Below are positions 12,328-47,443 of a DNA stretch of 64,000 nucleotides, one piece after another. The notes below the pieces were generated by a model. It had not been told where the DNA came from and did not search any database. It saw only the letters and a program-made list of their open reading frames with translations. The DNA lies in assembly GCA_028279515.1 (NCBI GenBank), contig JANQNQ010000009.1, forward strand, positions 194,429 to 258,428. The letters run 5' to 3'. Source of the stretch: Flavobacteriaceae bacterium. Lineage in GTDB: Bacteria; Bacteroidota; Bacteroidia; Flavobacteriales; Flavobacteriaceae. Numbering within the stretch: position 1 is the first letter of the stretch; the number at the start of each line of letters is the position of its first letter. A program made the translations under genes and the position numbers.

Positions 12328-13155
12328 ATGTCAGGATATGTAAAACCCGCGAGTATTCAAAAAGCAAGTGCGGCACCAGAATCCAAGAGCTTGCGAATCC
12401 GAGTTATCGAGACAGCCGATATCGTATACACGCCGCCAAAGGACGCCAATGGTGTCATGATGGTTGGGAACTTCCAATTGGCTCCAGGTAAATACTGGAC
12501 CGAGTTTGATGTGACCCCAAGCAAGACCAACCTTCCATTTAGTAGTGAAGGCGAGGAGGACAACGTTTCGCTGAGCTCCTTACCAGAATTCTATGCTCCT
12601 GGAAGTACACTGGAGCAGGAGGAATTTGTTCAAAATTGGACCAACACGAGCATCGTTATCGCCGTAGAGGTTGGGGCGTGCAATAGCCCTAATCCGTTCT
12701 GGAGAATCTACGGGAGCAAATGCGCGCCCTTGACATTGTTGGCAGAAGGACAGAACGACAATGAGGCCACGGCCATCATGTTGAAATTCCAACAGTTCAC
12801 CAAGACGCAGAATATGGCCGGACGATATACAGGTACATTCACACTCAGCACAGCGAACGCGGTTCCAGCAGATACTACCAATGTTGATGTTGCTGCAGGA
12901 ACAGGTGAGTACCAATTGGTTGACAATACAATAGCAACCGCCATTGCGGACCTTATCAATGCTGTACTTGGAGGCACCTATACGCTCATCGGTAGTGGTG
13001 GCACGAATCCAGCGACCATCGCATCAAGCAGCGCCAACTTCTTCTTAGTTGGGGCGGTGGATTGGACGGCAGCAACAGGAGCTACCATCACATTCAAGGC
13101 GTTCGACGCTGGAGGAGGCGACTTCTTCTTCGTGGAACAATCGAGAACATCATAG
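12328..13155 (+). CDS. Putative capsid decoration/structural protein sharing the C-terminal module with the capsid protein
   Basis: 275 aa. Its C-terminus (LINAVLGGTYTLIGSGGTNPATIASSSANFFLVG) is homologous to the repeats at the end of the 709-aa protein. Confidence 0.4.
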   Translation: MSGYVKPASIQKASAAPESKSLRIRVIETADIVYTPPKDANGVMMVGNFQLAPGKYWTEFDVTPSKTNLPFSSEGEEDNVSLSSLPEFYAPGSTLEQEEFVQNWTNTSIVIAVEVGACNSPNPFWRIYGSKCAPLTLLAEGQNDNEATAIMLKFQQFTKTQNMAGRYTGTFTLSTANAVPADTTNVDVAAGTGEYQLVDNTIATAIADLINAVLGGTYTLIGSGGTNPATIASSSANFFLVGAVDWTAATGATITFKAFDAGGGDFFFVEQSRTS

Positions 13156-13188
13156 TTCATGGTTAGTTTTTTAAGTTAGTTAGTTTGA

Positions 13189-13212
13189 CCCCGCAGCGAT
13201 GCGGGGTTTTTT
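13189..13212 (+). terminator. Rho-independent terminator after the capsid module
   Basis: CCCCGC-AGCGAT-GCGGGG followed by TTTTTT. Confidence 0.7.
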
Positions 13213-13277
13213 AGTCCTTTTTACGGATGCAATTGCATACTACTTTGCCGTAAATGCAACAGTAACAACACACAGTT

Positions 13278-14321
13278 ATGACAGATAGAGAAAAAGTTAT
13301 CGACTTCATCAAGTATGACAGAACCATATTGACCGGTCGTACATTGTATGCAAACTTACCAGGAAGCAGCCGAGCAATGGCCAATAGTTTGAACCGCCTC
13401 CCAGAGAGCCCTCAACATGTAGAGCGCATGTGCTACGAGATGTGCAAGTTGGTCGGCATTAAGGAGCTGATGATGCGATCGCTTCTCTCGAAAAAGGTAC
13501 AGACCAGACCAGTAGAGCCAGAGGAAACTAACGATCAAGAACTGGACTGGGATCCGAATGACCTTCTTCTTTCGTTGGACTTCGACACGATCGATGAAAA
13601 GGAGCTTGAGAATGCGGCGATTCATCTTTCAGAGATCTCCGGTTACGATGCTGCGGTCGAGATCCCAGATTTTGGAGGTGGTATCCAAGGGAATAAGGCC
13701 AGAAGGGATTTTGTGAAGGAACATCAGATCGAATCTGAATCGAATAAGACAAACGACCTTGATCGGGCAATCGAGCAATGGTCGACCTCACAACGTGGCC
13801 CGAAGCTCGAGGCAGCGTGTGAAAAGCTGAAGGTAGCCAAGTACGAATTGGCTGCAGAACAGATGAGAGCGCTCCCTAAGGCCGTCAAGGAATCTATCAA
13901 GCTACGGGACCAGTTCCCATTCTTGGGAGAATCGGATTGTCCTGATTGGGCAAAGATCCTAGTTTCCGATCTAATTACCGCATACCACAACTACAGAAAG
14001 AATCAGCCCCTGTTACATCACGCGACCACGGATGAGCAGCGAGCGGAGATCCTGAAGGATGTAAAGACAGCATTCATTAAGAACAAGAAGATTTGGGCCG
14101 AACTAGAATCCTTCCGAGACAAGGGCGCTCCCTTAGGTGAGCATGAGGTCTTCAAGATGATCGAACACAAGGAGGCCATCAAAAGCCTTGATGCCGAGGC
14201 ATTGAGCAAAAAGATAAATGCTTTGAGCAGCCAGAAGAGCAGAAGCAAGGGAGATAAGAAGAAGCATGGATTCGTTACCGAGCTTCTTGAATTTGCCCAA
14301 GCCGAACTTAAGAGACGATGA
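13278..14321 (+). CDS. Hypothetical prophage protein
   Basis: 347-aa acidic protein at the start of a new transcription unit. Confidence 0.4.
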   Translation: MTDREKVIDFIKYDRTILTGRTLYANLPGSSRAMANSLNRLPESPQHVERMCYEMCKLVGIKELMMRSLLSKKVQTRPVEPEETNDQELDWDPNDLLLSLDFDTIDEKELENAAIHLSEISGYDAAVEIPDFGGGIQGNKARRDFVKEHQIESESNKTNDLDRAIEQWSTSQRGPKLEAACEKLKVAKYELAAEQMRALPKAVKESIKLRDQFPFLGESDCPDWAKILVSDLITAYHNYRKNQPLLHHATTDEQRAEILKDVKTAFIKNKKIWAELESFRDKGAPLGEHEVFKMIEHKEAIKSLDAEALSKKINALSSQKSRSKGDKKKHGFVTELLEFAQAELKRR

Positions 14322-29146: not shown

Positions 29147-29377
29147 ATGTCTACCAAGCATCTACGAAACATACCGCTAAAACTTTATAGGGATTTTCTC
29201 GATGATAAAGGATGTAAATGCACAAGGACCAAAGGAGGTCATGAGCACTGGACAAGAAGTGACCTAGATAGGCCGATAACCGTGCAAACTCATGTCGACC
29301 CTGTCCCAGAGTTTATTATTAGGCAAGGTCTTCGGCAGTTAGGTGTTTCGAAAAAGGAATTTCTTGACTGGATTTAA
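29147..29377 (+). CDS. HicA-like mRNA-interferase toxin
   Basis: 76 aa. The KGGHEHWTR...ITVQTH...IIRQGLRQLGV pattern matches the HicA/YcfA family. Confidence 0.55.
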   Translation: MSTKHLRNIPLKLYRDFLDDKGCKCTRTKGGHEHWTRSDLDRPITVQTHVDPVPEFIIRQGLRQLGVSKKEFLDWI

Positions 29378-30564
29378 ATGTCATCAAGATTGTTGATGTC
29401 TTGCTCCATAAGACCGTCAACGATATGAACGTACACCATTGTCTGTTTTATCTCACTGTGACCAAGCAAGCGTTGTAATTTCACCACATTGCCACCTTTA
29501 AGTAAATAGTTGGTAGCAAAAGTATGTCTGCTTACATGAAAGGTCAGTTTCTGCTTAATTCCGCAGACCTTAGCAATCTCTTTTAACATCCTATTTATAT
29601 GAACGCCAGTAAATTCTCCATTGAATAAAGGGTCCTGCTTGTTCAGGAACGATCTGGCCTTGCTAGTCAACGGTATGCGCTGTAATTTATAGGTCTTCTT
29701 GGAGGTCAAAACTAAATGGTCGCCGATAATGTTGTCCTCATTGATTCTCAGCGAGTCACTTATTCTTATACCTGTCCAACAACTAAAGAGGAACCTTTTT
29801 AGTACCGCTAGGTGAGTAGGATTAACAAAATCACTTTCGGAATATTTGACCAACCGGGAAACTTCTTCTGGCATTAGGAAGATCGGCCGTGGTTTGAAGG
29901 CCTCTACCTTGATCTTGTCGTATGTGATACCTGACATTATTCCTTGATCATTGGCTATGTGCAGGAATTTTTTGAAGGTCTTCATCATGCTTGTAATTGT
30001 ATTTGGTGCGTTCTTGAGCTCGTGCTTCATATAGGCTCGAAGATCTCGTATAAAATCATGGTCGATCTCGTGGAAGGGGATGCTTTCCCTGTAATTACGC
30101 AATTTGGTAAATACTGACCTCTGCTGTCTATAGGTCTTTGGGTCAAGGCGGTCTCTTTCCTTGGAAAGTGCATTCTCGAAGAACTTGATAAAATCGAGAT
30201 GGGCTGTTGGATTCTCAAGCTCAAAGATCAGTTGCTTCAGTGAAAGCATGCGCTTTGATAGCCTGTATGTTACTTCCACCCGATTGATGTCGGCCAACTT
30301 TTGCTCAATTATCAAGTTATGGTCCACATAATTTTCGGCTCCCTTCCTTACCCGGCCCTCTACATCATCAAAGTCTTTTGGGCGCACGTAGATGTCCAAG
30401 TTCAATCTCATTAGTTTCTTCTGGTAGAGCTGTATGTAGACCATACACTTTCCGTCCTTTCTGATGTGGTCCTTTCTTAGTCGGACTTTGAGTCTAATTT
30501 TACCGATCATGATTTCTGGTAAATTCTCTGGTAAAAAAACTGCTGTTTCACGCGTATACCCCAT
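29374..30564 (-). CDS. Tyrosine-type site-specific integrase (the likely start is the ATG at 30510: MIGKIRLKV...)
   Basis: The C-terminal catalytic region HVSRHTFATNYLL...LLGHSEIKQTMVYVHI carries the R..H..R..Y signature. The N-terminal arm domain is typical of Bacteroidetes integrases. Confidence 0.9.
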   Translation of the reverse strand: MGYTRETAVFLPENLPEIMIGKIRLKVRLRKDHIRKDGKCMVYIQLYQKKLMRLNLDIYVRPKDFDDVEGRVRKGAENYVDHNLIIEQKLADINRVEVTYRLSKRMLSLKQLIFELENPTAHLDFIKFFENALSKERDRLDPKTYRQQRSVFTKLRNYRESIPFHEIDHDFIRDLRAYMKHELKNAPNTITSMMKTFKKFLHIANDQGIMSGITYDKIKVEAFKPRPIFLMPEEVSRLVKYSESDFVNPTHLAVLKRFLFSCWTGIRISDSLRINEDNIIGDHLVLTSKKTYKLQRIPLTSKARSFLNKQDPLFNGEFTGVHINRMLKEIAKVCGIKQKLTFHVSRHTFATNYLLKGGNVVKLQRLLGHSEIKQTMVYVHIVDGLMEQDINNLDDI

Positions 30565-37249: not shown

Positions 37250-38272
37250 CTATGCTTCTACAGCAACTTCAACAGACTTAACGGTCTTGATGATACGTGC
37301 TGCGATTTTGTATGGATCACCGTTAGAAGCAGGTCTTCTATCTTCTAACCAACCTTTCCAACCTTTTTCTACAGTTAGAATAGGAATACGGATTGAAGCA
37401 CCACGGTCAGAAACGCCGTAGCTAAAGTCGTTGATCGAAGCAGTTTCGTGAAGCCCAGTAAGACGTTGGTCGTTGAACTCTCCGTATACTGCGATATGCT
37501 CTTTGGCAACAGGTCTAAACGCTTCACAGATTTTCTCATATACTTCTTTAGAGCCACAAGTTCTCAAAGTAGTGTTAGAGAAGTTAGCGTGCATACCTGA
37601 ACCGTTCCAATCACCTTTTACAGGTTTTGGGTGATATTCAATATAGTATCCGTAATCTTCGGTAAGTCTATCTAGCAAGTATCTGGCAACCCAGATCTCA
37701 TCACCGGCCTTCTTGGCACCTTTAGCAAACAATTGGAACTCCCATTGTCCGCAAGCAACCTCTTGATTGATACCTTCGAAGTTCAATCCAGCTTCGATAC
37801 AAAGATCGGCGTGACGCTCAACAAGCTCACGTCCGTGTGTGTTTCTTCCACCAACTGAACAATAGTACAATCCTTGAGGTCCAGGATATCCACCTACAGG
37901 GAATCCTAAAGGTAGTTGAGTGTGCGCATCCATAATAAAGTATTCTTGCTCGAAGCCAAACCAGAAATCGTTGTCAGCGTCATCGATGGTAGCACGTGAA
38001 TTTGATTCATGCGCTGTTCCGTCTGCGTTTAACACTTCACACATTACTAAATACCCGTTTTGTCTCGCTGGATCTGGGTAGATAGCAACTGGCTTTAACA
38101 AGCAGTCAGAAGAATTACCTTCAGCCTGTCTTGTTGAGCTTCCGTCAAATGACCACGTTGGACAATCTTCTAGTTTTCCGCTAAAATCGTCTTCGACCTT
38201 TGTTTTGCTTCTCAAGTTGGCTGTGGGCTTGTAGCCGTCTAACCAAATGTACTCTAGCTTAGCCTTACTCAT
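37250..38272 (-). CDS. glnII: Glutamine synthetase type II
   Basis: Shares motifs with eukaryotic-type GS: WSFDGSST, FGFEQEYF, GPQGLYYC, WVARYLL, DWNGSGMHANFS, RLTGLHETASINDFSYGVSDRGASIRIP, EDRRPASNGDPY. Confidence 0.9.
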   Translation of the reverse strand: MSKAKLEYIWLDGYKPTANLRSKTKVEDDFSGKLEDCPTWSFDGSSTRQAEGNSSDCLLKPVAIYPDPARQNGYLVMCEVLNADGTAHESNSRATIDDADNDFWFGFEQEYFIMDAHTQLPLGFPVGGYPGPQGLYYCSVGGRNTHGRELVERHADLCIEAGLNFEGINQEVACGQWEFQLFAKGAKKAGDEIWVARYLLDRLTEDYGYYIEYHPKPVKGDWNGSGMHANFSNTTLRTCGSKEVYEKICEAFRPVAKEHIAVYGEFNDQRLTGLHETASINDFSYGVSDRGASIRIPILTVEKGWKGWLEDRRPASNGDPYKIAARIIKTVKSVEVAVEA

Positions 38273-38472
38273 AATCTGATGTATTTAAAGTTTTTATAAA
38301 TCCCGGACAAATATAGATCTATTTCAATACAACACCACAAAAATAGGGGGTGATGTTCTTTGAAGTTATTAATTTTTATCAACACCCTAATTTTTTTAGG
38401 GGGTCATCACCAAATTTTCATTTTTTAGCCCTAAATAGTCCTATATTTGCAATAGTCTTAAAAAATAGGAGT

Positions 38473-40659
38473 ATGTCAACATTACGATTTCAAGCATTAC
38501 AAGAGACATTTAATAGAAAACCAATAGCCGTTGAAGAAAACGGAAGGCGGTCTGCCATCTATGGTGAAAATGTATTTGACGAGAATACGATGCGTCAAAG
38601 CCTCACCAAAGATGCATACAACAGTGTGATGGACGCCATCGAAAAGGGAACCAAGATCGATCGACGCGTAGCGGATCAGATTGCCGCGGCCATGAAAGAT
38701 TGGGCCTTGTCGAAAAATGTGACGCACTACACGCACTGGTTTCAGCCTTTGACAGGAGCTACTGCAGAAAAGCACGATGCTTTTTTCGAAACAATAGGTA
38801 ACGGGCAAGCTATCGAGAAGTTTGGTGGCGGACAGTTGGTACAACAAGAGCCGGATGCCTCTAGTTTTCCTAACGGAGGAATTCGTAATACCTTTGAAGC
38901 ACGTGGTTACACAGCATGGGATCCTTCTTCTCCTGCTTTTATATATGGTACAACGCTTTGTATTCCAACAGTATTTGTTGCCTACACGGGCGAAGCCTTG
39001 GATTATAAGACACCTTTATTGAGAGCGCTTCAGGCAGTTGATACGGCTGCGACCGGAGTGGCAAAATATTTTGATAAGAACGTGAGCAAGGTGAACGCGA
39101 CACTAGGGTGGGAACAAGAATATTTCTTGATCGATTCGGCCTTGGCAATGTCTCGTCCGGATCTTGTGTTGGCAGGGCGCACCCTTTTAGGGCATTCTCC
39201 GGCAAAGGGACAACAGTTAGACGATCATTACTTTGGATCTATTCCTGCACGTGTACTTTCCTATATGAGAAGTCTAGAGAAAGAATGCATGCTGCTTGGC
39301 ATTCCTGTAAAAACGAGACATAACGAAGTAGCGCCCAACCAGTTTGAGTTGGCACCTATTTTTGAAGAAGCGAACTTGGCAGTCGACCATAACTCATTGT
39401 TGATGGATGTTATGGAAAAAGTAGCGGCGAGACACAACTTTAAAGTGTTGTTCCACGAAAAGCCGTTTGCAGGAATCAATGGTTCGGGTAAGCATAACAA
39501 CTGGTCGTTGAGTACCAATACCGGAGTGAATCTATTGAGCCCTGGAAAGACTCCAATGAGCAACCTTCAATTCTTGACCTTCTTCATTAATACTATAAAA
39601 GCCGTAAATGACTATGAAGAATTAGTACGTGCTTCGTTTGCCAGTGCCAGCAATGATCATCGCTTAGGTGCTAACGAGGCGCCTCCGGCGATCATTTCAG
39701 TTTTTATCGGAGAGCAACTTACCAATGTATTACATGAATTAGAAGGCGTTTCTACAGGAAAGTTATCACCGCAAGAAAAAACAGACTTAAAGTTAAATGT
39801 AGTAGGAAAGATTCCGGAGATATTATTGGACAACACAGATCGAAACCGTACTTCTCCTTTTGCGTTTACAGGAAACAAGTTCGAAATGCGAGCAGTGGGG
39901 TCGAAGGCCAATTGTGCCAATCCAATGACTGTGCTCAATACAATCATAGCCAAGCAGCTGACGGAGTTCAAGAAAGAAGTAGATGAGCTTATTGATAAGA
40001 AGAAGCTCAAAAAGGATGAAGCCATATTTAACGTGCTTCGCGAGTACATCAAAGCGTCAAAGAGCATCTTGTTTGAAGGAGATGGGTATAGCGAAGCTTG
40101 GGAAAAGGAAGCGAAGAAAAGAAAGCTAAGCAACAATAAGACAACGCCCGAAGCACTAAAGGTACGTGTGGCCAAAAAGACCCTACAACTTTTTGAAGAG
40201 ATGGGCGTCATGAACAAGGTAGAGGCCGAAGCACGCCATGAGATCGAGGTCGAAGAGTATTCCCTCCGTGTACAGATCGAAGGTCGTGTGCTTGGAGACA
40301 TTGCTCGAAATCATGTAATACCCACTGCAATTAAGTATCAAAACATCCTCATTGAGAACGTAAGAGGCCTCAAGGATATTTACGGAACGCAGTTTAAAAA
40401 GGTAGCTTCTGAACAGATGGAGATCATTGAGCAGATCTCTGATCATATCGCCAATATCAACAAAGGAGTCACCGAAATGACCGATGAACGCCGAAAGGCC
40501 AATAGACTAGAAAAAGCTGGAGACAAGGCACAGGCATATTGCAACAAAGTAAAGCCGTTCTTTGAAGAGATCCGATACCACTGCGATAAACTTGAGTTAT
40601 TGGTAGATGATGAGATCTGGCCGTTAACCAAATACCGTGAACTTCTGTTCGTTAAGTAA
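38473..40659 (+). CDS. glnN: Glutamine synthetase type III
   Basis: ~728 aa, divergent from glnII. GS catalytic-domain segments are present (NGSGKHNNWS...). The start is taken at MSTLRFQ (ATG at 38473). Confidence 0.8.
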   Translation: MSTLRFQALQETFNRKPIAVEENGRRSAIYGENVFDENTMRQSLTKDAYNSVMDAIEKGTKIDRRVADQIAAAMKDWALSKNVTHYTHWFQPLTGATAEKHDAFFETIGNGQAIEKFGGGQLVQQEPDASSFPNGGIRNTFEARGYTAWDPSSPAFIYGTTLCIPTVFVAYTGEALDYKTPLLRALQAVDTAATGVAKYFDKNVSKVNATLGWEQEYFLIDSALAMSRPDLVLAGRTLLGHSPAKGQQLDDHYFGSIPARVLSYMRSLEKECMLLGIPVKTRHNEVAPNQFELAPIFEEANLAVDHNSLLMDVMEKVAARHNFKVLFHEKPFAGINGSGKHNNWSLSTNTGVNLLSPGKTPMSNLQFLTFFINTIKAVNDYEELVRASFASASNDHRLGANEAPPAIISVFIGEQLTNVLHELEGVSTGKLSPQEKTDLKLNVVGKIPEILLDNTDRNRTSPFAFTGNKFEMRAVGSKANCANPMTVLNTIIAKQLTEFKKEVDELIDKKKLKKDEAIFNVLREYIKASKSILFEGDGYSEAWEKEAKKRKLSNNKTTPEALKVRVAKKTLQLFEEMGVMNKVEAEARHEIEVEEYSLRVQIEGRVLGDIARNHVIPTAIKYQNILIENVRGLKDIYGTQFKKVASEQMEIIEQISDHIANINKGVTEMTDERRKANRLEKAGDKAQAYCNKVKPFFEEIRYHCDKLELLVDDEIWPLTKYRELLFVK

Positions 40660-40706: not shown

Positions 40707-40919
40707 TAAAAAAATGTTAAAATTATATAAAAAACGACTATTAAAACCTCACCAAATAAGGTGGTTTTTTGCATAAAAATGTAACTACATCTGTTTTTTT
40801 TGTCTTTTAATCGATTTTGATGCAAATTTCTTACAAGAGTTATAAGTATTTCGTAGGTAGCGGTTTAAGCTGATTTTTTCATACTTTTGAATTGCTATTA
40901 ATCAATTAAATACTTAATT

Positions 40920-42152
40920 ATGAGAAATTATGTTCTAAGCATTGCGCTTGCTCTATGCGCTACTTTTGCTTTTGCTCAAAGCAACGACAGTGATGTCGAT
41001 CAATCCGGAACTTTAAACATGGCGAACGTTAACCAAGTGGGGTCTGATAACAGCTCTGAGGTTGACCAATATGGTGCTAATACCATCTTCAGCGGTATTA
41101 ACAACCAAGCTTATGTAGACCAATTTGGGGCTGACAACACGTCTAAAGTGAAGCAAGCAGGAGATTACAACCTAGGAGTTGTAGACCAAAGTGGAACATG
41201 GAACTACGCCAATATCGATCAAGGAGTTGGATTCGCTGAGTACAACGAAGCGTATGCGACCCAGATCGGTGATGAGAACTCTTCGTACCAAAAACAACGT
41301 TTTGACAACAACGAAGCGAGAATCACTCAAATCGGAGCTCGTAACACTTCTGTTCAAGACCAAAGCAGCGGACCTGATGGATCGCCTGGAAACTACGCTT
41401 ATGGTGAGCAGTGGGGAACTGACAACTACTTGAACCAAAAGCAAGTTGGACACTTGAACAACGCTACTTCTCTACAGGGAAGCGGATCTTTTGATTCAAG
41501 AGGTGGAATCGTTGGACAAACGCAAACTGGTGACGGAAACTCTGCTTTCGCAAACCACGAAGAGGATGACAACGAAATTTACCAAACACAAACTGGTTAC
41601 GGAAACCAAGCCGAAGCAAGACAAAACCTTGGATACTTCGGAGGTGACAATGACACTTACCAAGATCAAACTGGTACTGGAAACATTGCAAGATCTAAGC
41701 AAGAGCGTGTTGGTAACGTTGTAGACCAAGATCAAGTAGGAAACTACAACCTAGCTGAAGCTGATCAAAGAGGTTTCTACAACAACGCTATCCAAGAGCA
41801 AAACGGAGATGATAACGGAGCCTTCTCTTACCAAAGAGGAGATGACAACACATCTTACCAGTCTCAAGATGGAACCTTCAACACTGCATACTCTGCACAA
41901 TATGGAGCTGGTAACGAAGTTTGCCAAATCCAAGATGGTTCTATGAACGTTGCAGATTCTTACCAAGATGGGTATGACAACTCTAGCAGCATCAAGCAAA
42001 CAGGAATGGCTAACATCGCTATTGACACTCAATTAGGAGTTGACAACACTACGATGATCACGCAAAACGGAATGAACCACTTTAGCAATGTGCTACAAGT
42101 AGGATTCGGTAATGCAGCCACTGTAACTCAGCAAGATTTACCACAACCATAA
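40920..42152 (+). CDS. Curlin-repeat major amyloid subunit (CsgA-like)
   Basis: Signal peptide, then >12 imperfect repeats of the curlin type (S-x5-Q-x-G-x-x-N-x-A-x3-Q; e.g. VDQSGTLNMANVNQVGSDNSSEVDQYGAN...). 410 aa. Confidence 0.7.
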   Translation: MRNYVLSIALALCATFAFAQSNDSDVDQSGTLNMANVNQVGSDNSSEVDQYGANTIFSGINNQAYVDQFGADNTSKVKQAGDYNLGVVDQSGTWNYANIDQGVGFAEYNEAYATQIGDENSSYQKQRFDNNEARITQIGARNTSVQDQSSGPDGSPGNYAYGEQWGTDNYLNQKQVGHLNNATSLQGSGSFDSRGGIVGQTQTGDGNSAFANHEEDDNEIYQTQTGYGNQAEARQNLGYFGGDNDTYQDQTGTGNIARSKQERVGNVVDQDQVGNYNLAEADQRGFYNNAIQEQNGDDNGAFSYQRGDDNTSYQSQDGTFNTAYSAQYGAGNEVCQIQDGSMNVADSYQDGYDNSSSIKQTGMANIAIDTQLGVDNTTMITQNGMNHFSNVLQVGFGNAATVTQQDLPQP

Positions 42153-42189
42153 TCGTTAATTGGTTAAAAATCACTAACTTGAAGAAGGA

Positions 42190-42215
42190 GGGGGAGAAAC
42201 TTTCTCCCCTTTTTT
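42190..42215 (+). terminator. Stem-loop/terminator between the csgA-like and csgB-like genes
   Basis: GGGGAGAAA-c-TTTCTCCCC followed by TTTTTT. Confidence 0.6.
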
Positions 42216-42235
42216 CAACTTTAAACAAAGACACA

Positions 42236-42766
42236 ATGAACAGCAGATCGTACATAGCATTCATAGCGTTATTATGTTTTTGTATCCAAGGAATGGCTCA
42301 AAATGTAACTGGACAAGTAAGCGCAGATGACGTACAGGTTTCTGACCTGTTGCAGAGTAATACAGCGCTTCAGGCACAAGTTTTTGGTAGCCAGTCAGTT
42401 CAACAACAGTCGACCTCCTTACTAAACAACAATGTGTTTATTCAGCAGATTGGTGATGATAATGTCATCAATACAAGAATAGACACCAACCTCAATACCT
42501 CCTCACTTAGACTTACCCAAGCAGGCAATAGCAACATCATCGTGATTGACGAAAAGGCTCCAGAAGTTGTAAAGAACATTGTTCAGAATGGCGATAACAA
42601 CAAGGTCATTGACTTCTCATTAAACAGCCTTAATGCCACGAGCCTCGATTTGATTCAGAATGGAAGCAATTTGACGTTCGAAAAATTTGGCACCAATTCG
42701 TTGACCGAAAATTTGAAGTTTACAATGCAGGGAACCTCAAGAACCCTGATCATTCGAAGCTTCTAG
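42236..42766 (+). CDS. Curlin-repeat minor subunit/nucleator (CsgB-like)
   Basis: Signal peptide MNSRSYIAFIALLCFCIQGMAQ. Repeats IQQIGDDNVIN / LTQAGNSNII / IVQNGDNNKV / LIQNGSNL. The start is taken at the ATG at 42236. Confidence 0.6.
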   Translation: MNSRSYIAFIALLCFCIQGMAQNVTGQVSADDVQVSDLLQSNTALQAQVFGSQSVQQQSTSLLNNNVFIQQIGDDNVINTRIDTNLNTSSLRLTQAGNSNIIVIDEKAPEVVKNIVQNGDNNKVIDFSLNSLNATSLDLIQNGSNLTFEKFGTNSLTENLKFTMQGTSRTLIIRSF

Positions 42767-42781
42767 ATCGCCCACCAAAGT

Positions 42782-43543
42782 GTGATGAAATTTTTTAAGC
42801 ATATACAGAAAGGAGTGCTGCCTATCATATGCATTCTTTTCGCTCAATTGGGGATAGCCCAGTTCACGAACAAAGAAGTCGTTGCCAAGCTCGAGATCGA
42901 GCAGTTGGATGACATTTTGAACGTTGAAGCCAAGGCCTCTAATACAACAGATGTCTATAAAAGCTTATCGTACTCACTGGCGGTGATTCGCACAAACAAG
43001 CAAACTCAGAATCTATCGCGCAACGCGCAAGAAGGAAGATTCACACTAGAACCCAATGAAACCAAGAAAGTAGCCACAACGGCGATCAATTCTCAAGAAG
43101 AAGATAAAATCGTAGTACTGCTTTTGGTGTATGATGAAGATAGGAACATTATTGGCAAAGATCGTTTCGCCATTAATGAAGAAAAGAAAGAAGATGCGCA
43201 GACAGATGCGCAAAAAGAGAACATACCAAACGACGGCATCGAGATCAAAGGAATCGTCATCGATGAGACCAAAACGAAACCAGGCCGTGATTTCTATGAG
43301 TCGTTTTACAGTAAGTACACCCTGAATAAGATCAATGGAGAGAAGGTGGTGACAATTATAGAAAAGTTTAGCCTGGCACGAAGTACGATCATGGAGGTCA
43401 AGATCGATGATAACCTCATAGCGCAGTTTATCACAAGACCCGACTATGAGTATATCGAACAGATGTCAACACAATCGATTCGATTGGTATATAAGTACTT
43501 CCAAGATCTGAAAAAACAACGATCATATATAACGCAGTACTGA
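42782..43543 (+). CDS. CsgE-like curli secretion specificity factor with an N-terminal extension
   Basis: The C-terminal region GRDFYESFYSKYT...EKVVTIIEKFSLARSTIMEVKIDDNLIAQF parallels E. coli CsgE (GHDFYRAFSDKWE...). Signal peptide present. 253 aa. Confidence 0.5.
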   Translation: MMKFFKHIQKGVLPIICILFAQLGIAQFTNKEVVAKLEIEQLDDILNVEAKASNTTDVYKSLSYSLAVIRTNKQTQNLSRNAQEGRFTLEPNETKKVATTAINSQEEDKIVVLLLVYDEDRNIIGKDRFAINEEKKEDAQTDAQKENIPNDGIEIKGIVIDETKTKPGRDFYESFYSKYTLNKINGEKVVTIIEKFSLARSTIMEVKIDDNLIAQFITRPDYEYIEQMSTQSIRLVYKYFQDLKKQRSYITQY

Positions 43544-43581
43544 GAGCAGCGCTGCAACCATTAAATTCAACTACCACAATT

Positions 43582-43989
43582 ATGAAGTATTTACTAACAT
43601 TCCTTGTTTTTTGCTTCGTCGCATCGGCGTTGCAAGCGCAGGATCTGGTCTATCGACCCAAAAATCCTGCCTTTGGTGGAGACACCTTTAACTATCAATG
43701 GCTACTGAGTTCTGCCGAATCGCAGAATACCTTCACAGATCCCAACGCTCGGAATCAGGATGACCAATCAGACATCGAGCGCTTCACAGAGAATCTAAAC
43801 AGTCAGCTGTTAAATCAGATCTCCAGAACACTTTTCAATGAGCAATTTGGAACCGAAGGCCTCACCGAAGGTACCTTCAGTTTTGGTTCACTCTTCATCG
43901 AGATTTTCCCCTCCAATGAAGGGCTTGTCATCAACATTTTAGATACCAATACAGGCGATCAGACCCAAGTGATCGTCCCAAATGCTTAA
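43582..43989 (+). CDS. csgF: CsgF-like curli assembly protein
   Basis: VYRPKNPAFGGDTFNYQWLLSSAESQN matches the CsgF N-terminal RNPNFGGNP...LLNSAQAQN signature. Signal peptide present. 135 aa. Confidence 0.75.
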   Translation: MKYLLTFLVFCFVASALQAQDLVYRPKNPAFGGDTFNYQWLLSSAESQNTFTDPNARNQDDQSDIERFTENLNSQLLNQISRTLFNEQFGTEGLTEGTFSFGSLFIEIFPSNEGLVINILDTNTGDQTQVIVPNA

Positions 43990-44005
43990 TTTCAAATAAG
44001 GACAT

Positions 44006-45505
44006 ATGAAAGCGATAAGAAATATACTTATAGGGGCGATCTATGCGCTGGTTTTATCCAGTTGTGGCTCCTATTTTAATCAACCATATCAAGTAGAGAA
44101 AGCAAGGATCGGGGAGGCCACCGAGGTGGGCAAGAGGCTTAGGGAACTGCCCGAACCTGTGGAGCCCGTGGTAGTTGGGGTATACAAGTTTAGGGACCAG
44201 ACCGGGCAATACAAACCCAGCGAAAACGGTAGTACGTTCAGTACAGCTGTTACTCAGGGGGCCACCACCATCCTTGTAAAAGCACTTGAAGATTCTCAAT
44301 GGTTCGTCCCTATCGAACGAGAGAATCTTAGCAACCTGTTGAATGAGCGAAACATCATTCGATCAACACGTCAAGAGTATCGAAAAACAAGCAATCCAAA
44401 CGAACCACAATTACCTCCGTTACTGTACGCTGGTATTTTGTTAGAAGGCGGAATTGTTTCGTACGACTCCAATATCATCACAGGAGGTGTTGGAGCTCGG
44501 TACTTTGGTGTAGGCGGGTCAACGCAGTACAGACAAGACAGGATCACCATCTATCTAAGAGCCGTTTCTACCTCAAGCGGAAAAATCCTGAAGACGGTGT
44601 ATGTATCCAAAACCATTTTATCTCAAGCCATCGATGCCAACTTTTTCAGATATGTGAAATTCAAGCGTCTGTTAGAGGCCGAAACCGGATTCACAAAGAA
44701 TGAACCCGTGCAATTGGCCGTGACCGAAGCGATTGAAAAGGCCGTAGAATCCCTTATCATCGAAGGTCTTGAAGATAAGTTATGGACCGCAAAGACCGAA
44801 CCACAAGAAGTACAGGCCATCATCGAGAACTATAATCTCGAAGAACAAGAGGCCGATGCCACCCAGTTGTACAATCGATACCTGATTGAAAGACGTGGTA
44901 AAGACGTAATCGAACTTGCTGCAGGAGGAGCCATCATTGATGGAGATTATCCTAGCCCGCAAATAGAACATAATTTCAGGGCTGGTTATAAGCATTACAT
45001 CAATCCCTTCTTTAATATCGGAGCCTCCTTCAACAAGTTTGTGCTTGCCAACAAAGATGTACTCAACGAAGGCTTTCTATCCTTTGATGTCAACGCCGAA
45101 TACAATGTGTTACCGTATGACAAACTTACACCATTCGCATTTGCAGGTGGAGGCGTCAACTTCGCCAACGGACTCGAAGATGCTACGCCCAAGTTGCAAT
45201 ACGGAGCAGGGATGGAATACTTGGTCAGTGATGGCATTGGTATAAAACTATTTGGTGAATACAACATGACCTTTAGCGACGAATTAGACGGAGTTGCCAA
45301 CGGAAAACGAGATGATTTCTACTGGCGTGTTGGTGCTGGGGTAAATATCTATCTGACCAAACCATACTCGGCCGAAAATGAAGAACGAAAGCTAGAACGT
45401 CAACAACAGCGAGAGCTTAAGCGCGAAGCCAAAGAGCAACGTAAAGAAGAGCGCAGGCAGCGCAAAGCACAAAAAAGACAAGATAAAAACGAAACAACCA
45501 ATTAA
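44006..45505 (+). CDS. csgG: CsgG-like curli secretion channel lipoprotein with a C-terminal beta-barrel extension
   Basis: Lipobox LSSCG. VGVYKFRDQTGQ is equivalent to the CsgG VAVLPFRDLTG motif. 499 aa, against 277 aa in E. coli. The C-terminus resembles an OmpA-like barrel and has a K/R/E-rich tail. Confidence 0.7.
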   Translation: MKAIRNILIGAIYALVLSSCGSYFNQPYQVEKARIGEATEVGKRLRELPEPVEPVVVGVYKFRDQTGQYKPSENGSTFSTAVTQGATTILVKALEDSQWFVPIERENLSNLLNERNIIRSTRQEYRKTSNPNEPQLPPLLYAGILLEGGIVSYDSNIITGGVGARYFGVGGSTQYRQDRITIYLRAVSTSSGKILKTVYVSKTILSQAIDANFFRYVKFKRLLEAETGFTKNEPVQLAVTEAIEKAVESLIIEGLEDKLWTAKTEPQEVQAIIENYNLEEQEADATQLYNRYLIERRGKDVIELAAGGAIIDGDYPSPQIEHNFRAGYKHYINPFFNIGASFNKFVLANKDVLNEGFLSFDVNAEYNVLPYDKLTPFAFAGGGVNFANGLEDATPKLQYGAGMEYLVSDGIGIKLFGEYNMTFSDELDGVANGKRDDFYWRVGAGVNIYLTKPYSAENEERKLERQQQRELKREAKEQRKEERRQRKAQKRQDKNETTN

Positions 45506-45520
45506 GTAAAGTATAATACG

Positions 45521-47008
45521 ATGAGCAAATTAGTTAAAACCGCATTCTTGGCCATTTTAGTCATCACTTTAAATGGTTGTAGCGAAGATACCTTAGAGCA
45601 ATTCCCTACCGGAAAGATTACCGGTAAAGTGGTAACACTGGGAGATAACGAACCCATCGAAAATGTGAAAGTGTCGACGAACCCAAGTTCGAGCACCGTG
45701 TTTTCAGATGAAAACGGAGACTTCACTATCAATGATGTACGTGAAGGAGATTATTCGGTACAAGCCGAAAAAGAAGGGCTGTTGGATAATTTTGAAGGAA
45801 TCACAGTGACCGTAAATGGTACGGTGAATGTCATTTTTGAAATGCAACCCGAAACAGCAAATAACCGTCCACCAGATGCGCCTGTACTGATCACACCAGT
45901 CAACAACGCAACAGATTTAGGTGTTGAGGTGCTTTTAGAGTGGTCTGGTTCTGATCCTGATGATGATACGCTTACATACGAAGTTGAAATATTGAATGAC
46001 CAAAACTCAGACGTACTGGCCTTTGAAAATTTGACCGATACGACTTTAACGGTTTCTGGCCTTTCGTTTGGGTACAAATACTTTTGGCAGGTCTCAGCTT
46101 CCGACGGAATTAATAGTCCGTCGCAAAGTGAAGTGTTCACTTTTGAAACCTTAGACTTTCCGAACAATCGTTTTCTATATGTGAAGAAAGTGGGAGGAAA
46201 CAATGTGATCTATTCGTCCGATGAAGACGGCAATGAAATTCAACTCACCTCTTCTTCTAACAATAGCTGGAGACCTAGAAAGAGCGTAGTAGCTGATAAG
46301 ATCGCATTTCTGCGTACGGATGGCGCCGAAACACATTTGTATACGATGAATCCTGATGGTTCTGACGTATTCAAGGTGACCAACACAGTTTCGGTGAACG
46401 GTTTTGACCTCGATGAGGTAAAATTCTCGTGGTCAGGCAACGGCAGCCAACTACTGTACGCAAATTTTGACAGATTGTACACCATAAATGCTGACGGCAG
46501 CGGACTCCAAATGATCTATGAAACTGCCGACGGAAGCTTCATCACCGAATGTGATTGGAGCAACGATGGCACCCTGATCGCCTTGAAGACCAATAATGCC
46601 AACGGATATAATATTTCCATCTACACGATCAATATGGCCGGAACCATTCAAACAACGGTTTTATCTGGTGTTACAGGAGCCGCAGGCAACGTAAACCTTT
46701 CGGTAAACAATCAAAGGTTACTGTATACCTATGACGTTTCAGGATTTGAGAGCCCAGATTACCGCCAGTTAGATACCAAGATGTTTGTGTACGATTTCGG
46801 AACATCAACAGCTTCAGATGCCTCCCTCGGAAAACTTCCAGGGACGAATGATCTCGAAGCACGTTTTTCACCAAACGAAGCCCAAGTGATTTTTGTGAAC
46901 ACCTCAAATGATGGCCTTTCAGAACATAAGATCTTTATAGCAACCATTGGAGACCAAAACTCCAGAGCAGAAACATTTCCGGCGGCAACCATGCCAGACT
47001 GGGAATAG
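45521..47008 (+). CDS. Lipoprotein with a CarboxypepD_reg-like domain, an FN3-like domain and a TolB-like (PD40) beta-propeller
   Basis: Lipobox TLNGCS. N-terminal GKITGKVV...NVKVSTNP fold. DG-rich propeller repeats. 15 bp downstream of csgG, followed by tandem terminators. Confidence 0.55.
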   Translation: MSKLVKTAFLAILVITLNGCSEDTLEQFPTGKITGKVVTLGDNEPIENVKVSTNPSSSTVFSDENGDFTINDVREGDYSVQAEKEGLLDNFEGITVTVNGTVNVIFEMQPETANNRPPDAPVLITPVNNATDLGVEVLLEWSGSDPDDDTLTYEVEILNDQNSDVLAFENLTDTTLTVSGLSFGYKYFWQVSASDGINSPSQSEVFTFETLDFPNNRFLYVKKVGGNNVIYSSDEDGNEIQLTSSSNNSWRPRKSVVADKIAFLRTDGAETHLYTMNPDGSDVFKVTNTVSVNGFDLDEVKFSWSGNGSQLLYANFDRLYTINADGSGLQMIYETADGSFITECDWSNDGTLIALKTNNANGYNISIYTINMAGTIQTTVLSGVTGAAGNVNLSVNNQRLLYTYDVSGFESPDYRQLDTKMFVYDFGTSTASDASLGKLPGTNDLEARFSPNEAQVIFVNTSNDGLSEHKIFIATIGDQNSRAETFPAATMPDWE

Positions 47009-47020
47009 TTCCAACCAAAA

Positions 47021-47080
47021 TTTCTCTATAAGAGCATTCCGTTTTCGGGATGCTCTTTTTTTTATTCCTGCGAAGGCAGG
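47021..47080 (+). terminator. Tandem rho-independent terminators ending the curli operon
   Basis: AGAGCATTCCG-TTTT-CGGGATGCTCT followed by T8, then ATTCCTGC-GAAG-GCAGGAAT followed by CTTTTTG. Confidence 0.75.
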
Positions 47081-47443
47081 AATCTTTTTGCGTCCTGCAA
47101 TAGTTTCTATAAAAGTATTTGGGCGTTCCGTGAAGTGTGCTTCGCGCTACTTCACGGCGCGTTTTCCGCTTGTAGTTTTGCAAACCACAAATTAAAGTTT
47201 GCAAAAGCTATCACTGCAACCGCTAACGCTATTTTGGTCATTAGTCGTTGGTCGTTGGTAAGTCCTTGGTTTCTAGAATTAAGCTCCTCCCTTCAGTTGA
47301 AGGGAGGTGGCAGCACATAGTGCTGTCGGAGGGTTTGTCTTCAAATTTGCATAAAATGTTAGTGAATTCATGGCAAAACAAGATTTCTACCTTCGCAGGA
47401 ATTCACAACAAAAAAACTTACTTTTGCACCTCAACACAACACT

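Follow-up and report, generated by a model that had tools for sequence, protein, structure and literature searches.

A predicted six-gene curli operon of the Bacteroidota type with a conserved terminal lipoprotein and a CsgG-barrel fusion

The present study concerns a stretch of 64,000 nucleotides from a marine Flavobacteriaceae bacterium (GenBank assembly GCA_028279515.1, contig JANQNQ010000009.1, positions 194,429 to 258,428; in the following the window), in which six genes are predicted to form a complete curli-type (type VIII secretion) operon of the Bacteroidota type. The last of these genes encodes a lipoprotein that, judged by its gene neighbourhood, very likely represents a missing part of the Bacteroidota curli machinery. 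From our point of view, the locus is probably one six-gene operon with a dedicated terminal lipoprotein which, flipped to the cell surface, would act at the exit of the secretion channel. All of the evidence comes from comparative genomics, and the finding extends a known system.

Results

Linkage of the lipoprotein to curli loci

A preliminary description of the window had assigned the lipoprotein to the curli locus, and both this assignment and the conservation next to csgG that would go with it are borne out by gene neighbourhoods, seen from the lipoprotein as well as from csgF. A protein search returned more than 120 full-length homologues of the lipoprotein at 52-63% identity, the nearest relatives lying at 60-63%, and a scan that used a single genome for each species detected relatives in 445 species. 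For the best 80 of these 445 species, which cover about 15 genera with loci of the Flavobacteriaceae type, the lipoprotein gene directly follows csgG in 80/80 loci, with csgE, csgF and an extended csgG upstream and a median gap of 11 bp between csgG and the lipoprotein gene. Since most of these loci share their flanks, namely a type III glutamine synthetase gene (GSIII) on one side and purM on the other, the argument leans on rearranged and distant loci. The adjacency of csgG and the lipoprotein gene is kept where the GSIII/purM flanks are rearranged, that is, in locus L044 and in loci L059, L062, L069, L076, L079 and L084, the latter six of which have lost both flanks.

When 1.84 billion cluster representatives were searched exhaustively, full-length members of about 500 aa appeared down to 29% identity. 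Four distant homologues with 30-36% identity, from Rufibacter, Salmonirosea, a Bacteroidales metagenome-assembled genome (MAG) and an Ignavibacteriae MAG, are each encoded by the last gene of a csgEFG and curlin locus with unrelated flanks. In three of these four loci, csgE-F-G are followed by several curlin genes, then by a short CsgB-like curlin gene and finally by the lipoprotein gene. As the lipoprotein gene is last also in these rearranged loci, it stays with the locus while the gene order changes. In the Ignavibacteriae MAG (L085, JABFGH010000026.1, 2242-7889), the stretch that separates csgG from the lipoprotein gene holds four large paralogues of curlin (383-465 aa) and a single short one, an exceptionally rich complement of subunit genes for one locus.

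The second set of loci was anchored on csgF and hence blind to the lipoprotein. It consists of metagenome loci that were collected via a CsgF alignment headed by a Rufibacter protein, scanned with hidden Markov models, and limited to the best 80 of 323 matches to one Bacteroidota-type CsgF pattern. Twenty-nine of the 80 loci stop no more than about 530 bp from csgG and are not evaluable, and all of the remaining 51 encode the lipoprotein (51/51; 0 lack it): 32 have a full-length gene adjoining csgG, four a full-length gene after curlin genes, six a gene cut by the contig end, and nine a short form. In none of the 84 loci that were collected via the lipoprotein did a member of the family lie outside a curli locus.

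Because of this conservation of gene neighbourhood, we regard the lipoprotein as a probable dedicated curli component. Its linkage to the locus appears to be phylum-wide and not peculiar to this genome, and on the present comparison it travels with a fusion of CsgG to a predicted β-barrel. One of the loci, L082, stands on a contig labelled as a Sulfurovum sp. MAG (NVVN01000001.1) and is of the Flavobacteriaceae type, with a GSIII 79% and a PurM 82% identical to those of the window; the Sulfurovum label looks like a binning error.

Domain structure and predicted location of the lipoprotein

The lipoprotein had been described as a combination of CarboxypepD_reg, FN3 and a propeller, and the Pfam domains and the AlphaFold2 (AF2) model agree on this architecture. 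The model (pLDDT 87.6) contains two β-sandwich domains and a six-bladed propeller of about 24 strands in residues 218-494. With Foldseek, the top match is TolB (1.3e-13; TolB chains 1e-13 to 1e-11), covering the propeller only, at about 16% identity and with a TM-score of about 0.55 on TolB. At the sequence level, the propeller gives weak matches to TolB, Dpp5 and Tricorn. The label 'TolB-like' in the preliminary description consequently holds for the fold of the propeller and fails for the protein as a whole: the TolB equivalog model TIGR02800 has a cutoff of 343 bits, of which the protein reaches 44, and is matched at model positions 292-384 only, and the propeller is absent from a short form of the family. 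A true TolB was rejected on account of this score and of the N-terminus, which consists of CarboxypepD_reg and FN3. A peptidase, as the Dpp5 and Tricorn matches might imply, was likewise rejected, since these matches concern the propeller only and there is no catalytic domain. Public annotations of the family read 'carboxypeptidase regulatory-like domain-containing protein', 'PD40 domain-containing protein' and 'TolB protein'.

The short form (215-258 aa) is encoded directly after csgG in nine loci (L095, 11830-12477; L122, 11795-12454; L091, L093, L096, L098, L099, L110 and L111). It retains the lipobox, an acidic motif behind it, CarboxypepD_reg and FN3 and lacks the propeller, and no separate propeller gene follows it in these loci. 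The propeller-free forms therefore point to a conserved core of lipid anchor, CarboxypepD_reg and FN3. In L095, on an 830-kb metagenome contig, the short lipoprotein gene is followed by a gene for a 337-aa protein with a LuxR/GerE-type helix-turn-helix (12490-13503), which may be a CsgD-like regulator; the locus in the window has no counterpart to it.

With regard to its location, the lipoprotein had been taken to be periplasmic, whereas the sequence behind the lipobox favours the surface. This sequence reads C-S-E-D-T-I-D in the lipoprotein family, and an acidic residue occupies position +3 (E/D) in 81/81 and position +4 (D/E) in 81/81 homologues. At least two acidic residues at +2 to +5 are thus present in 81/81 lipoprotein homologues compared to 0/80 CsgG proteins, the CsgG proteins of the same loci reading C-G-T/A-Y-F-N-Q after the lipobox. 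The acidic motif is kept at 29-36% identity as well as in the short forms, and the lipobox cysteine is invariant in the family. Two acidic residues behind a polar or basic one have been demonstrated to suffice for sending a periplasm-facing lipoprotein to the surface, the consensus of the lipoprotein export signal (LES) being SDDFE in F. johnsoniae and SDDDD in B. fragilis (Lauber et al., 2016, PMC5080379). The C-S-E-D of the lipoprotein conforms to this minimal rule. Because of this LES-like acidic motif, which is absent from CsgG, the lipoprotein is more likely surface-exposed than periplasmic.

A predicted β-barrel at the C-terminus of CsgG

The CsgG domain in the window is followed by an extension of about 220 aa, which had been noted as a C-terminal barrel and charged segment. 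This is in line with the AF2 model of a full-length CsgG homologue, in which eight strands (residues 300-449, pLDDT 80-93) precede a long charged helix. Only the barrel part of the model was used, as the N-terminal domain has pLDDT values mostly below 50, which is expected for the monomer of an oligomeric channel. With Foldseek, the barrel matches NspA (TM-score 0.80), OmpA, OprF, Ail, OmpW and PagL, and CsgG matches the solved CsgG structures 4uv2 and 6si7 at 26-34% identity. Among 30 relatives, 27 have an extension that is recognized by Pfam OMP_b-brl (best 7.7e-13). A sequence profile of the extension gave only weak matches to OmpW and PagL in the PDB (E 0.4-0.7), and a fold search was thus needed to settle the identity of the barrel.

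The conserved core of the CsgG family terminates in GxGxNFY[FL], with which the protein itself ends in several genera, and the barrel in the window ends in the β-signal-like NFYF. On the model, the extension is hence an 8-stranded outer-membrane β-barrel with a putative C-terminal aromatic β-signal. The 120 best CsgG homologues all measure 448-577 aa, and each of the four distant loci encodes a homologous extension (tblastn 1e-10 to 1e-15). The charged tail was rejected as a defining feature, since this K/E/R-rich segment is missing in many genera and is lineage-specific.

Curlins, CsgE and CsgF

The CsgA-like protein matches Pfam Curlin_rpt with 2e-31 and 108 bits (cutoff 20.7) and the NCBIfam CsgA and CsgB models with 1e-28 to 1e-33, which is under their equivalog cutoffs. 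From residue 28 to residue 398, 23 strand motifs strictly follow QxGxxN, with an 11-residue period in the C-terminal half, corresponding to about 17 repeats of about 22 aa, in agreement with the more than 12 repeats that had been reported. The short CsgB-like protein, taken alone, has no match in Pfam. Its four QxGxxN-type repeats are invariant across its family, the family profile matches the solved curlin 8c50 (7.8e-18) and E. coli CsgA (8enq, 4.3e-8), and the NCBIfam CsgA model matches 19 of 22 family members, so that the earlier assignment as a curlin stands at the profile level. Size and position suggest a nucleator role, and nothing in the protein separates a nucleator from a major subunit. 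A survey of curli systems describes CsgA and CsgB as distinguishable only in Gammaproteobacteria (Dueholm, 2012, PMC3521004).

CsgE carries a genuine N-terminal extension, as had been proposed: the Pfam CsgE domain (3.2e-12, 47 bits, cutoff 25) covers residues 155-249 only. The N-terminal 100 residues or so match the NCBIfam CsgH model NF041112 with 1.9e-7 and 31 bits, under its cutoff of 35, and a 23-sequence profile of this domain retrieved E. coli CsgC only (2y2t, 2xsk; E 0.007) from 177,635 PDB sequences. A faint precomputed match to Tafi-CsgC exists in the CsgE of Olleya. The N-terminus of CsgE is therefore predicted to be a CsgC/CsgH-like domain. The statement that csgC is absent is accordingly correct for a separate gene and probably not for the domain. 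Known members of these families bear disulphide patterns, CxC in CsgC and distant cysteines in CsgH, and CsgH sub-families in Bacteroidetes have already been noted (Taylor et al., 2016, PMC4838910). The N-terminal domain of CsgE does not show either pattern, since residues 24-135 of the window protein are free of cysteine, as are the aligned relatives. The distant loci of Cytophagales, Bacteroidales and Ignavibacteriae encode a short CsgE of 139-175 aa without this domain. In Olleya, CsgE measures 395-398 aa and has two tandem CsgC/H-like domains before the CsgE domain (L001, 6858-8045; Olleya sp. R77988, CP138988).

The presence of csgF, also claimed before, is secured by a full-length Pfam match with 138 bits (cutoff 25.8); the gene adjoins csgE and csgG on the same strand, and the N-terminal NPAFGG motif of the protein is kept in all relatives.

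Operon structure and transcription signals

The six open reading frames occupy positions 40920-47008 of the window, all on the forward strand and with the coordinates given in the preliminary description; with its terminators, the locus extends to 47083 (Table 1). The gene order is csgA-like, csgB-like, csgE, csgF, csgG and lipoprotein gene. A spacing of 15-38 bp had been reported for the entire locus, which is true from csgB to the lipoprotein gene (15, 38, 16 and 15 bp) and not for the spacer between csgA and csgB, which measures 83 bp and contains a hairpin.

Table 1. Predicted features of the curli locus in the window (positions as nucleotides of the window)
Feature	Position	Strand	Description and evidence
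Candidate operon promoter	40882..40889	+	TACTTTTG; matches Bacteroidetes -7 motif TAnnTTTG; 38 nt 5' of csgA ATG
csgA-like gene	40920..42152	+	Major curlin, 410 aa; Pfam Curlin_rpt; Sec signal peptide; ~17 repeats
Hairpin between csgA and csgB	42184..42216	+	Intrinsic-terminator-like; 15-bp stem, 3-nt loop, U tract
csgB-like gene	42236..42766	+	Short curlin, 176 aa, from ATG; four conserved QxGxxN-type repeats
csgE	42782..43543	+	N-terminal CsgC/CsgH-like domain and CsgE domain
CsgC/CsgH-like domain of CsgE	42887-43150	+	About residues 36-123; NCBIfam CsgH
CsgE domain	43244-43528	+	Residues 155-249; Pfam CsgE
csgF	43582..43989	+	135 aa; Pfam CsgF 2e-40, full length
csgG	44006..45505	+	Lipoprotein, 499 aa; Pfam CsgG 1.8e-68, 230 bits (cutoff 20.8); lipobox LSSC
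CsgG domain	44150-44791	+	Residues 49-262; Pfam
OmpA-type β-barrel of CsgG	44903-45352	+	Residues 300-449; 8-stranded; AF2, Foldseek
Charged helical tail of CsgG	45371-45499	+	Residues 456-498; AF2
Lipoprotein gene	45521..47008	+	Curli-locus lipoprotein, 495 aa; lipobox LNGC, then S-E-D
CarboxypepD_reg of lipoprotein	45617-45847	+	Pfam
FN3 of lipoprotein	about 45872-46153	+	Pfam fn3
Propeller of lipoprotein	46169-47005	+	Six-bladed, TolB-type; AF2, Foldseek
Tandem intrinsic terminators	47030..47057, 47064..47083	+	Two, closing the operon; -32.6 kcal/mol, z -5.7

A single transcription unit is indicated by the short gaps of 15-38 bp, by terminators that are confined to the 3' sides of csgA and of the lipoprotein gene, and by a -7 motif that is found only 5' of csgA. 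Co-transcription of the lipoprotein gene with the csg genes is in this way supported only indirectly, and the segment from csgB to the lipoprotein gene may have a promoter of its own. The -7 motif was taken as TAnnTTTG, the Bacteroidetes consensus attributed to Bayley et al. (2000), and the promoter evidence consists of consensus matches only. A second match lies at 40961, just inside csgA, and the consensus scan of the forward strand found no further one between 40962 and 45786; purM has a match of its own 25 nt before its ATG. A scan for sigma-70 promoters returned 10 sites compared to 13.1 in shuffled sequence and was disregarded, the model being unsuited to Bacteroidota.

The attenuator-like hairpin that had been noted after csgA is present. 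The spacer folds with -23.8 kcal/mol (z -3.4; 0 of 200 shuffles fold equally well), and of 63 relatives, 45 likewise have a hairpin and T tract ahead of csgB, with stem sequences that vary between genera. It is thus a probable partial terminator, and partial termination after csgA would most likely provide CsgA in excess over the secretion machinery. The tandem terminators reported after the lipoprotein gene were found as well. A sub-threshold Rfam match to sbrA (47003-47062) was dismissed, as it represents the terminator hairpin only; otherwise Rfam held nothing real.

Discussion

Proposed role of the lipoprotein

Curli are the best-understood bacterial functional amyloid, and nearly all mechanistic work on them has been done in E. 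coli. By homology with this system, the CsgA- and CsgB-like curlins of the window would be exported by Sec, kept soluble and delivered by a CsgE that brings its own CsgC/H-type anti-amyloid domain, secreted via the CsgG channel plugged by CsgF, and nucleated at the cell surface. The lipoprotein could enter this pathway at its end. We imagine that it is anchored in the outer membrane and flipped to the surface by its acidic motif, and that its stalk of CarboxypepD_reg and FN3, topped in most lineages by a peptide-binding propeller, acts at the channel exit, where it would hold or organise curlin nucleation and fibre attachment. One could further speculate that the lipoprotein docks to the CsgG-borne barrels, and that these barrels, which end in a putative β-signal, recruit the β-barrel assembly machinery (BAM) for insertion of the channel. 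CarboxypepD_reg has a transthyretin-like fold, and both transthyretin and the Ig-like CsgC/H proteins inhibit the polymerisation of CsgA. This offers a lead to an alternative to the anchor, in which the lipoprotein, tethered to the surface, would modulate polymerisation.

Several points weigh against a dedicated surface lipoprotein at the channel exit. The role of the protein is deduced entirely from its gene neighbourhood, its domains and its sorting motif, and a motif resembling an export signal predicts surface exposure and does not prove it. As the propeller is dispensable in one lineage, a mechanism that works via TolB-like peptide binding would not be general. The common GSIII/purM flanks of most Flavobacteriaceae loci make the adjacency to csgG partly a matter of plain synteny, the csgF-anchored sample is not a census, and docking to the barrels is speculation.

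A more elaborate arrangement is conceivable, in which a CsgG nonamer is ringed by nine fused OmpA-like barrels to which the surface lipoprotein docks as an essential component that times and places nucleation. We consider this picture possible and rather doubtful; if true, it would define a structurally distinct nonamer-barrel-lipoprotein subtype of the curli machinery in Bacteroidota and their relatives, with a role of the lipoprotein that is without counterpart in the E. coli paradigm.

Among the competing explanations, the one that fares best is that the lipoprotein is dedicated to curli and faces the periplasm, where it would bind unfolded curlins or the periplasmic side of CsgG/CsgE as a TolB- or PorE-like chaperone, gate or envelope link. 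The best structural match of the propeller is indeed the periplasmic TolB, the NCBIfam TolB and Dpp5 propeller models point in the same direction, and PorE, a lipoprotein of the type IX secretion system that combines a propeller with a CarboxypepD_reg-like domain, is periplasmic. However, the acidic motif is invariant in the family, is absent from the periplasm-facing CsgG and fits an experimentally defined export signal, a natural variant drops the propeller and keeps the motif, and a CsgE with a CsgH-like domain would already cover periplasmic chaperoning. For these reasons we regard a periplasmic orientation as unlikely.

It is considerably less probable still that the lipoprotein is a co-regulated surface adhesin or matrix binder, which would link the fibres to polysaccharide or substratum and be dispensable for secretion, nucleation and attachment. 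Such a role would suit its modules, all of which are common in surface proteins, as well as its place at the end of the operon whatever gene precedes it, and E. coli curli function without any such lipoprotein. Yet the presence in every evaluable csgF-anchored locus and the strict single-copy placement across phyla are tighter than one would expect of an optional matrix factor, and a family that never left the curli locus in the lipoprotein-anchored set fits it poorly.

That the adjacency is inherited synteny without function, with an unrelated lipoprotein gene caught between csgG and purM, draws on the syntenic GSIII-csg-lipoprotein-purM block of most Flavobacteriaceae loci and is close to refuted, since the adjacency survives the loss of both flanks, the gene ends csgEFG-curlin loci with different neighbours in Cytophagales, Bacteroidales and the Ignavibacteriae MAG, and no evaluable csgF-anchored locus was without it.

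Relation to known systems

The locus shares with the curli system of E. coli and Salmonella (csgBAC-csgDEFG) the QxGxxN curlins, CsgE, a CsgF with the NPxFGG plug motif, Sec signals throughout, and a lipoprotein CsgG channel with 30-34% identity to the solved CsgG 4uv2. It differs from E. coli in being a single operon with csgA first and without csgD, in a CsgA of about 17 repeats compared to 5, in a CsgC-type domain that is fused to CsgE and free of cysteines, in a CsgG with an additional 8-stranded barrel, and in a sixth gene, that of the lipoprotein, which has no E. coli counterpart. The fusion of CsgG to a barrel and the terminal lipoprotein always co-occur in the loci compared, and in this respect they set the predicted type apart from that of E. 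coli.

Similarities to individual proteins have their limits as well. The lipoprotein shares with TolB the six-bladed propeller fold and has it as its best PDB match, whereas it lacks the N-terminal domain of TolB, is lipidated instead of soluble, is encoded outside a tol-pal operon and can do without its propeller. The domain in front of CsgE resembles CsgC and CsgH (PDB 2Y2Y, 2N59) by the match to the CsgH model and by a PDB profile match to CsgC only; here it is fused to CsgE, lacks cysteines and stays just under the curated CsgH cutoff. With the LES-bearing surface lipoproteins of Bacteroidota, the lipoprotein has in common the lipobox cysteine, the polar residue and at least two acidic residues. 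While those proteins are mostly SusD-like nutrient binders that work with TonB-dependent barrels, the lipoprotein of the window is tied to a channel for amyloid subunits.

Curli genes are known to be widespread in Bacteroidetes/Bacteroidota, where csgC and csgD are missing and many-repeat as well as multiple CsgA/B homologues occur, according to the available portions of two surveys (PMC3521004; 2025 review, PMC12822426). These portions deal with the same kind of locus on the basis of models for known Csg families only, and they mention neither the lipoprotein nor the CsgG-barrel fusion nor the CsgH-CsgE fusion. Searches of the open-access literature yielded no account of the lipoprotein or of the fusion of CsgG to a barrel; a prior description elsewhere is possible. 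What seems to be new is hence an undescribed, consistently present extra component, together with a remodelled channel protein, in a known secretion and assembly system.

Among the Bacteroidota are abundant bacteria of the sea, of soils and of the gut. Should their curli systems depend on the additional surface lipoprotein and on a barrel-fused CsgG, the parts list of type VIII secretion is incomplete for a whole phylum, searches with the known Csg families alone miss a defining marker, and heterologous reconstitution of Bacteroidota curli may fail without the sixth gene. The combination of csgF, a long CsgG and the lipoprotein could further serve as a genomic signature for annotating such loci, and the system would offer a test case for how cells control amyloid nucleation at their surface.

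Flanking genes and minor observations

The locus is flanked by two glutamine synthetase genes upstream and by purM downstream. The former are divergent, encode a 340-aa GlnA-like protein and a type III enzyme, lie directly upstream (37250-40659), and in most Flavobacteriaceae relatives show synteny with the curli locus. Neither a LuxR-type nor any other regulator is encoded by the adjoining genes, in keeping with the reported absence of csgD. The spacer of 435 bp that separates the lipoprotein gene from purM has, beyond the tandem terminators, two additional hairpins of about 9 bp (about 47131-47162 and 47284-47309), and an Rfam search of positions 47100-47320 returned nothing. A tyrosine integrase with Phage_integrase, SAM-like and Arm-DNA-bind_5 domains is encoded on the reverse strand (29374-30564), at a distance of about 10 kb upstream from the curli genes, which suggests a mobile element nearby.

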